Virus record (IMG/VR): IMGVR_UViG_2695420624_000002
Span: 1 to 18,279 of that record
Source of the DNA: a virus
Lineage: Duplodnaviria > Heunggongvirae > Uroviricota > Caudoviricetes
DNA length: 18,279 bases
Reading direction: 5' to 3' (one strand)
The notes under the pieces were generated by a model. The model ran no database searches. It was not told the origin of the DNA and saw nothing but the letters and a program-made list of their open reading frames with translations. The translations under genes were made by a program, and so were the position numbers. Positions 8,364 to 8,470 of the stretch are shown piece after piece; the stretch's first letter is position 1, and each line of letters opens with the position of its first letter.

Positions 8364-8393
8364 AAAAAAACCCGCTTGTGGGCGGGTTTTGTT
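8364..8393. terminator. tR'-like intrinsic terminator (bidirectional) downstream of the late promoter
   Basis: AAAAAAA-CCCGC-ttgtgg-GCGGG-TTTTGTTTGCTTTT: stem-loop flanked by an A7 run and a T-rich run, so it is competent in both orientations; sits between the Q gene and ileZ. Confidence 0.55.
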
Positions 8394-8441
8394 TGCTTTT
8401 GCCATCACGTACAAAATCGGCAAAATATCAGATTTGCATGA

Positions 8442-8470
8442 AATATATGCCTTTCAATCTACTTTTGCAA
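8442..8470 (-). promoter_or_regulatory. PR'-like late promoter (-35 TTGCAA, 17-bp spacer, -10 TATATT) overlapping the 3' end of the Q-like gene
   Basis: Read on the minus strand: TTGCAA (8470..8465), 17 nt, TATATT (8447..8442); a transcript starting near 8435 would reach the terminator at ~8364 after about 70 nt, analogous to the lambda PR'-qut-tR' arrangement. Confidence 0.4.

Follow-up and report, generated by a model that had tools for sequence, protein, structure and literature searches.

The Q gene and the sequence elements at its 3′ end

The window, that is, the whole 18,279-nucleotide (nt) stretch of DNA analysed here (IMG/VR virus record IMGVR_UViG_2695420624_000002, positions 1 to 18,279), carries on its minus strand a gene for a Q antiterminator (8454–9143) whose 3′ end coincides with a predicted promoter and is followed by a hairpin resembling an intrinsic terminator. 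We compared this promoter-terminator segment (8364–8470) with related loci and consider it very probable that this segment controls the late genes of a phage-82-type lambdoid prophage, through a late promoter (PR′), a promoter-proximal pause element and a terminator (tR′) at which a short leader RNA would end unless Q acts.

The Q gene encodes 229 amino acids (aa) from an ATG codon, or 231 aa if the GTG start of the program-made open reading frame (ORF) is taken; an identical gene in RefSeq, labelled bacteriophage antitermination protein Q, starts at the ATG. The protein matched Pfam PF06323 with an E-value of 9.8e-93, covering 217 of the 220 profile positions, and shares 76.4% of its residues with phage 82 Q across all 229 aa and 73% with phage 434 Q, again over the full length. 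PF06323 is the Q82 family, one of the three unrelated families of lambdoid Q antiterminators (PMC9388147, PMC7171158), and the only one of the three without a solved structure: none was found in a 2026 copy of PDB, where the sole match (E = 0.005) was an unrelated Ply protein. The sequence-only reading of this DNA had taken the 231-aa ORF for a Q antiterminator and had staked its account of the locus on that identity, which is borne out by the PF06323 match (E ∼1e-92) and the 76% identity to phage 82 Q.

The Q frame ends in V-A-K-V-D-TGA, with the stop codon at 8456–8454 on the minus strand. Both direct reading of this strand and a promoter scan placed a −35 hexamer, TTGCAA, at 8470–8465, overlapping the codons V-A-K, and a −10 hexamer, TATATT, at 8447–8442. 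The 17-nt spacer between them, AAGTAGATTGAAAGGCA (8448–8464), contains the Q stop codon. A near-consensus promoter over the last codons of Q had been proposed from the sequence; its position and its overlap with the gene hold, but “near-consensus” does not, since the promoter alone matches 9 of 12 consensus bases and 27 such sites occur in the window, not significantly more than in shuffled sequences (20.2 ± 4.0). Judged by comparison with relatives, the significance of the promoter comes from its position and conservation and not from the match of its hexamers. Indeed, the composite motif TTGMAA-N17-TAYRTT-N11-TGRTAT occurred once in the window (8425–8470, minus strand), with none expected in 200 shuffles, and once in each of 16 independently fetched loci, either at the 3′ end of a Q82-family gene or, in Gifsy-1, before the small RNA IsrJ. 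The −35 hexamer is TTGCAA in all aligned Q82-family loci but phiES15 (TTGAAA), while the −10 hexamer varies among TATATT, TACATT, TATACT, TACGTT and TATGTT. At the sequence level, a sigma-70-type promoter at the 3′ end of Q is kept in every Q82-family locus examined.

The spacer is also a candidate Q-binding element (QBE). In phage 82 the QBE sits between the −35 and −10 elements (PMC4914094), and the core of the window spacer, GATTGAAA/GATTAAAA, is common to phage 434, IsrJ and Enterobacter loci; this core is at the same time coding sequence and stop codon.

Match to the phage 82 late promoter

Transcription is predicted to start in the AAA run at 8433–8435, 7 nt past the −10 hexamer. With +1 set at A8435, all the published landmarks of the phage 82 late promoter (82 pR′) fall in place; the first base of the Rfam IsrJ model aligns at 8438, near this predicted start. 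An AAA run at the start agrees with the transcript slippage that has been reported for the 82 late promoter (reference 22 as cited in PMC5001585).

At 82 pR′, the pause-inducing −10-like element is nearer to TATAAT than that of lambda and comes with an extended −10 motif, and sigma-70 engages at a transcript length of 21 nt (PMC5001585). The same study describes a discriminator-like GCC at +15–17 followed by an AT-rich stretch, a 1-base insertion at +18 that puts G at the RNA 3′ end (hence G at +24), U at +25, and pausing at +25/+26. With +1 at A8435, the initial transcript of the window reads AAAUC-UG-A-UAUUUU-GCC-GAUUUU-G-U-A, which has TG at +6/+7, the hexamer at +9 to +14, GCC at +15–17, an AT-rich run and then G, U and A at +24, +25 and +26, respectively. 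All the 82 pR′ landmarks that the study states in words thus fit the window. On this match, TG, TATTTT and GCC together (8419–8430, minus strand) would form a sigma-70-dependent pause element, and homology to the 82 pause places a predicted promoter-proximal pause, and with it the putative loading point of Q, at 8410–8411 (+25 U, +26 A). The sequence TGRTAT was invariant in all relatives compared. Positions +15–17 are GTA in phage 434 and CGC in the IsrJ-type relatives, so that the window has a specifically 82-type initial transcribed region.

Terminator and predicted leader RNA

Sequence and fold agree on a tR′-like intrinsic terminator at 8364–8390 on the minus strand, about 70 nt beyond the promoter/start region. 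It consists of AAAACCCGC, the loop CCACAA and GCGGGUUUU, then UUU; the stem CCCGC/GCGGG (8386–8382 and 8375–8371) has an AAAA/UUUU extension and a 6-nt loop and runs into a U7 tract (8370–8364). The A-tract 5′ of the stem gives the hairpin a bidirectional look, and a consensus scan called it on the plus strand only (8367–8390). This is because the longest-stem rule of the scan consumes four of the minus-strand U residues; read directly, the minus strand has five G-C pairs followed by seven U and is the better terminator. The proposal that the hairpin would also stop plus-strand antisense transcription is plausible from the sequence and from the plus-strand scan score, but no plus-strand transcript needing a terminator was found.

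The leader RNA predicted to end there (8363–8435, minus strand) is 72–74 nt long. Folding of the 73-nt RNA gave two hairpins with −22.0 kcal/mol, compared to −13.5 ± 2.8 for 200 dinucleotide shuffles (z = −3.07), none of which folded as well. In an alignment of 12 leaders, compensatory changes occurred in five of the nine consensus pairs of the terminator. E. coli variants have wholly different terminator stems at the same position with the pairing kept, the stems across variants being CCCGCC/GCGGG, CUGCCG/GGCGG, CCACCG/GGUGG, AGCCUCGCC/GCGGGGCU and AGCCCGAGG/CCUUGGGCU, and the leader from +1 to +38 is nearly invariant among these variants. The claim of a ∼70-nt transcript that would stop at ∼8364 unless Q modifies the polymerase is thus supported at the sequence level by the predicted length, the conserved unit and the Q82-family Q.

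The other hairpin, HP1 (8397–8425, minus strand; +11 to +39), pairs UUUUGCC with GGCAAAA and adds three inner pairs, and the minimum free energy and centroid folds agree on it. The 5′ arm shares sequence with the pause element, and the 3′ arm (GGCAAAA, +33 to +39) lies beyond the pause. The 3′ arm is conserved, which DNA-level signals do not account for. Hairpins with other arms occupy the HP1 position in the Klebsiella, IsrJ-type and Kluyvera lineages (AUGCUGCC/GGCGGCAU, GUCGCC/GG-U-CGAC and UGCCA/UGGCA); by inspection, the leaders of phage 434, phiES15 and ZC-S1 have no HP1-like hairpin. Read by eye between lineages, covariation outside the GCC/GGC core of HP1 is suggestive only. MAFFT and RNAalifold did not pick it up, as the register of the arms changes from lineage to lineage.

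Two further observations concern this segment. A 34-codon ORF with its ATG at 8406 (8304–8406, minus strand) runs through the terminator, and phage ON470580 has a “hypothetical protein” annotated between Q and the tRNA. We rejected it as a leader peptide or small ORF: the frame is not conserved, it stops after 3 codons in the SE11 variant, and the segment is probably non-coding. Separately, a 99%-identical copy in PPompW_EH2246 has an interrupted terminator U-tract (GCGGGTTTTGTTGTG, positions 3766–3785 of that locus), which may weaken termination in PPompW and Stx2a-PPompW phages.

Conservation and distribution of the unit

The promoter-pause-terminator unit was found behind Q82-family genes in Escherichia, Klebsiella, Enterobacter, Salmonella and Citrobacter, directly after the gene in 13 phage loci and six E. 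coli variants. Of 11 further phage loci, which come from Klebsiella, Enterobacter, Salmonella and Cronobacter, ten carry it in the same form, as do six diverged prophages of E. coli: the promoter lies over the Q stop codon, TGRTAT is 11 nt past the −10 hexamer, and 50–100 nt from the start there is a GC-rich hairpin followed by a U-tract. The eleventh locus is Gifsy-1, where the unit lies further downstream of Q. A pattern scan of 185,579 species genomes, one per species, gave at least 120 motif-bearing loci. Among the 120 matches listed, 13 have a gene for a Q82-family protein, in every case with the motif at its 3′ end; most of the listed loci are chance matches in AT-rich genomes and served as negative controls.

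A search of the 5426 complete E. coli genomes turned up at least part of the element (the promoter and the beginning of the transcribed sequence) in 1957. In 1320 complete genomes at least 80% of the unit was matched, and 844 records are at least 99% identical. A single E. coli genome has up to six matching places, typically four in O157:H7. One copy identical to that of the window (100%) lies in prophage Sp12 of O157:H7 Sakai (NC_002695.2, 2,240,992–2,241,063, minus strand), behind ECs_2267 and followed by ileZ-argN-argO. An enterobacterial-type leader (62.7 bits) was also seen at positions 601–681 of a 795-bp scaffold in the assembly of the actinobacterium Kocuria sabuli; this is probably assembly contamination.

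Relationship to IsrJ

IsrJ is a 74-nt Salmonella RNA with a mapped 5′ end, the deletion of which lowers invasion and effector translocation (PMC2330248). At the Rfam gathering thresholds, only sok, STnc100 and tRNAs were found in the window. In E-value mode, the isrJ family (RF01393) matched over its full length (model positions 1–75) at 8366–8438 with E = 0.006 and 24.5 bits, below the gathering threshold of 37 bits. The same family passes the threshold, at 54–73 bits, in five Enterobacter/Klebsiella phages, where the match starts 16 nt past the stop codon of the Q82-family gene, and it scores 100 bits in Gifsy-1. A joint covariance model built for both leader types gave a single match in the window, at 8363–8435. 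With this model, held-out relatives of both types scored 48–73 bits and phage 434 scored 26 bits, and none of the unrelated chance-motif loci fell below E = 0.28. Furthermore, position and promoter coincide: like IsrJ, the window leader lies behind the end of a Q82-type gene and has TTGCAA-17-TATATT and a start at AAAUCUGAUAU. In sequence terms, the window leader is a diverged, 82-type member of the IsrJ lineage, without being a member of RF01393 by the criterion of Rfam.

In Gifsy-1, ATTGCAAAACTGGATTAA, located upstream of the IsrJ promoter and just past the anrP stop codon, would encode IAKLD-stop, the end of a 434-like Q. This remnant of a Q end behind anrP indicates that isrK-orf45-anrP was inserted between antQ and its late promoter. 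The isrK family also matched the window, as weakly as isrJ; we rejected this match as homology, the isrK of Gifsy-1 belonging to the different, inserted module. As for the module itself, at positions 1532–1730 of the Gifsy-1 locus isrK overlaps matches to the Rfam families of the P1-type C4 antisense RNA (69 bits) and its a1/b1 target (48 bits), whereby isrK-orf45-anrP looks like a c4/icd/ant cassette of the P1 immI type.

IsrJ was highly transcribed in 17 of 17 conditions tested in a Gifsy-1 lysogen (bioRxiv 10.1101/787010), as expected of a constitutive PR′ leader. In the papers searched, IsrJ is described as an island small RNA, and a description as a PR′ leader was not found. What is new here is the relationship to IsrJ, the high prevalence in E. 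coli and the unexplained conserved hairpin; the switch itself is of a textbook kind.

Prophage context

The window belongs to a prophage of E. coli and has 100% identity to NZ_CP027550 across 4563–18279; this closest complete genome matches only from 4563. The prophage is decayed (1–5063, 13101–14378): it has no lysis or head genes, and an IS110 transposase gene lies in its early region. Three tRNA genes (7994–8243, minus strand) begin 120 nt past the terminator. The first was called tRNA-Met (CAT) by ARAGORN and tRNA-Ile (ileZ type) by RefSeq, the other two are Arg-TCG and Arg-TCT, and the trio is the same as ileZ6-argN4-argO6 of Sakai Sp12. In front of them is a second promoter-like site, TTGCAA-17-TATTAT (8281–8253, minus strand), whose −10 hexamer ends 10 nt before the first tRNA gene (8243). 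This site is conserved in PPompW and probably gives the tRNA cluster Q-independent expression.

Past the tRNAs come remnants of TerB-like and DUF3927 genes, the small RNA STnc100 (7051–7223, minus strand; Rfam 100.8 bits) upstream of the gene for a sialate O-acetylesterase, with a fragment from the C-terminus of the tail-tip protein J (3499–4803) immediately behind the esterase gene, and then Lom, a tail fibre gene and an NleB/SseK type III effector gene (1–981). A 2026 preprint ties STnc100 to the PasD small RNAs of enteropathogenic and enterohaemorrhagic E. coli. The scan gave strong terminators on the minus strand at 7026–7008, 3480–3461 and 2780–2759, which fit a long operon in need of antitermination. 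In the early region, upstream of DUF968-RusA-Q, there is a hok/sok-type toxin-antitoxin locus (11012–11336, minus strand; Rfam sok 113.5 bits), annotated as hokD in the identical RefSeq record.

Proposed mechanism

The assignment to a phage-82-type late control region draws on the sequence elements and their positions, the family of Q, conservation and covariation in relatives, and a leader homologous to IsrJ. Carried over from the phage 82 literature are the position of the start, the pause, the binding of Q and the read-through that depends on it. By that analogy, sigma-70 RNA polymerase would initiate constitutively at PR′, with +1 near A8435. Region 2 of sigma-70 would then re-bind the promoter-like TGATATTTT at +6 to +14, and the polymerase would scrunch and pause at about +25/+26 (8411/8410). 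In the absence of Q, the polymerase would escape from the pause, stop at the hairpin and U7 tract (8390–8364) and release a 72–74-nt RNA with two hairpins. Q made from the early operon would bind a DNA site in the promoter spacer and load onto the paused complex, aided by NusA as shown for 82 Q, to give a terminator-resistant polymerase. This polymerase would read through tR′ and the further minus-strand terminators into the tRNAs, STnc100, the sialate esterase and the remains of the late operon. In a decayed prophage, Q-dependent read-through may be rare or never occur, and the short RNA may then be the only regular product.

Several points weigh against this assignment. The comparison with phage 82 was made by the published verbal description and not by alignment: the record X92588 ends at the Q stop codon, and a full-text literature search for the phage 82 PR′ sequence returned nothing relevant. 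Likewise, the spacer is a candidate QBE by its location. The −35 hexamer agrees with the consensus in just four of six bases, and the window holds many promoter-like sites with 9 of 12 matches. The support comes from sequence comparison, and since the prophage is decayed, Q may never be expressed and the switch may be stuck in its terminated state. Finally, the leader is not among the 63 orphan Hfq-bound sites of Sakai (Tree et al. 2014), and there is no EcOnc peak there. That list kept only sites more than 100 nt away from coding regions, and the Sp12 copy lies 19–90 nt from the Q stop codon, which makes its absence uninformative; the StxS copy in Sp5 was missed through the same 100-nt filter. 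Candidates on the Sakai Hfq list in Sp6, Sp10 and Sp11 proved to be other elements.

If the assignment is right, it has several consequences. As a landmark in annotation, the unit shows where the late operon of Q82-type prophages begins. It would also account for the insulation of the downstream genes, those for the tRNAs, STnc100, the esterase and the effectors, from the early operon. With its 72-nt read-out, it would be a compact natural template, practical for the question of the Q82 structure.

Alternative and additional readings

The terminated leader might, besides its role in cis, be a stable, Hfq-associated, trans-acting small RNA, an E. coli counterpart of IsrJ that the prophage makes constitutively and that acts on host or island mRNAs. 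We regard this additional role as possible, though the balance is against it. In its favour are the homology to IsrJ in position, promoter and the first 15 nt, the phenotype of the IsrJ deletion, and StxS, which shows that a PR′ leader can gain a trans function (PMC7547250). The RNA is laid out in the usual way of small RNAs, its 5′ end being unpaired and followed by a hairpin, an A-rich linker and a terminator that ends in U7. Moreover, +26 to +38 are conserved past the pause site though the adjoining terminators have been swapped, and the element is widespread in E. coli. On the other side, this reading draws on sequence and analogy, and the isrJ match stays under the Rfam threshold. The pause signals in the DNA already explain the conserved 5′ segment. 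The free segments of the RNA are AU-rich and would be weak as seeds. When the three unpaired segments were scanned for duplexes with the 19 translation start regions of the window, the energies were no better than with shuffles, the best case having a nominal, uncorrected P = 0.04. Phage 434 lacks the hairpin segment, which would hence be dispensable for Q function and could be neutral.

Somewhat less likely still is a wider, joint reading, by which the 82-type leader and IsrJ form one widespread family of constitutive, Hfq-associated small RNAs made from Q82-type late promoters, HP1 and the linker past the pause are kept for a function at the RNA level, and decayed prophages keep the unit since the short RNA benefits the host. 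We offer these three statements as a single speculation. The decayed prophage of the window retains Q, PR′, the tRNAs, the esterase and the type III effector, but no lysis genes. Should the E. coli leader RNA prove stable and active, many pathogenic strains would have, in one to several copies, a small RNA that has so far gone unstudied.

The conserved TTGC repeats at the 3′ end of Q could instead, or in addition to being part of PR′, be the target of a CII-type activator of an antisense, paQ-like promoter that reads into Q on the plus strand. There, 8465–8478 reads TTGCAACACTTTGC, a TTGC-N6-TTGC box that overlaps the −35 of PR′ on the opposite strand, and in the phage 434 record this spot is labelled a CII site and the paQ −35. 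That annotation, however, is a consensus match with no experiment behind it. In the window a YdaT-type gene occupies the cII position, with no lambda-type cII, and no −10-like hexamer could be read at the usual distance on the plus strand. A paQ-like promoter would also leave the pause element and the terminator unexplained. We consider it improbable; the box may be an additional or vestigial feature next to PR′.

Two readings that do without a Q-controlled PR′ can be set aside as highly implausible. By one, the hairpin is a plain terminator of the early (Q) operon and the promoter hexamers are there by chance: sites with 9 of 12 matches are about as frequent in the window as in shuffles, and a terminator directly past the Q stop codon would also end non-antiterminated early transcripts, but the hexamers with their spacing of 17 nt, their distance from TGRTAT and the landmarks of the pause are kept across genera while the terminator sequence varies freely, and the Gifsy-1 unit, although split from Q by the inserted module, still drives IsrJ from its mapped 5′ end, so that the conservation pattern and the mapped IsrJ start together exclude it. 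By the other, 8470–8442 is the promoter of the tRNA cluster and the leaky terminator works as an attenuator or leader-peptide switch, as the nearness of the tRNA genes and weak Rfam matches to the Phe, Trp and Leu leaders (21–25 bits) could suggest; yet the cluster has its own site at 8281–8253, the leader matches are far below threshold and depend on the terminator and U-run only, no reading frame is conserved, and relatives with the same unit (434, SE11, CE10) have no downstream tRNAs.

Comparison with known systems

The 6S RNA of phage lambda (194 nt), the leader between PR′ and tR′, arises on the principle proposed for the late control region of the window: the late promoter is constitutive, there is a sigma-dependent pause, and the leader is terminated unless Q loads and extends it. 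Lambda differs in its Q family (PF03589), in its pause at +16/17 and in a far longer leader, and no sequence similarity was seen.

StxS of the Stx1 and Stx2a phages, a 74-nt by-product of termination between PR′ and tR′ that is cut by RNase E from a 258-nt leader and has trans functions and an rpoS-activating seed (PMC7547250), had been put forward as the precedent for a regulatory role of the window leader. The literature claim stands, and the layout is analogous, with a leader terminated at tR′ behind a PR′ that is constitutive in the lysogen. In detail the precedent fails: the Q of the Stx1 phage Sp15 belongs to the Q21 family (PF06530) and not to PF06323, a 258-nt precursor processed by RNase E contrasts with a predicted primary transcript of ∼72 nt, and there are no toxin genes downstream in the window. 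BLAST found likeness between the StxS leader and the window only in a 30-nt terminator-like stretch (83% identity), and the joint covariance model scored 15.1 bits at the StxS locus. On sequence grounds StxS is an analogue, not a relative, of the window leader. Sakai Sp15 also has, at positions 2288–2358 of the locus (minus strand), a hairpin AACCCGCC..GCGGGTTTTTTTG like the window terminator, at most ∼110 nt past its Q21-family Q and well before a second terminator.

The late region of phage 434 (OL657226) is nearer. Its Q is 73% identical, it has TTGCAA-17-TATACT and TGGTATGTT at +6 to +14, and a terminator is annotated 49 nt past the Q stop codon. Its leader, however, is ∼54 nt long and lacks the HP1 segment (a weak, unrelated stem is predicted), and +15–17 are GTA, not GCC.

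IsrJ shares with the window leader the promoter TTGCAA-17-TATATT, the first 11 nt (AAAUCUGAUAU), the ∼74-nt length class, the order of hairpin, A-rich linker and terminator, and a tRNA gene as the next gene. The two sequences diverge from +12, with GCC at +16–18 in IsrJ compared to +15–17 in the window; in Gifsy-1 the isrK-orf45-anrP module separates Q from the unit, and HilA dependence and an invasion phenotype have been reported for IsrJ only.

With the late region of phage 82, the window has in common a Q82-family Q (76% identical), a promoter that overlaps the Q 3′ end, an extended −10-like element up to +14, GCC at +15–17, G at +24, U at +25 and a terminator tens of nt downstream. The window is nevertheless not phage 82 itself; the differences are that the window Q departs at about one quarter of its residues and that the late operon is truncated. 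The phage 82 leader and Salmonella IsrJ, at the exact same position, are closer precedents than StxS. Taken together, a single sequence family would join the phage 82 model of pausing and antitermination, IsrJ, and the idea, derived from StxS, that antiterminated promoters make regulatory RNAs.

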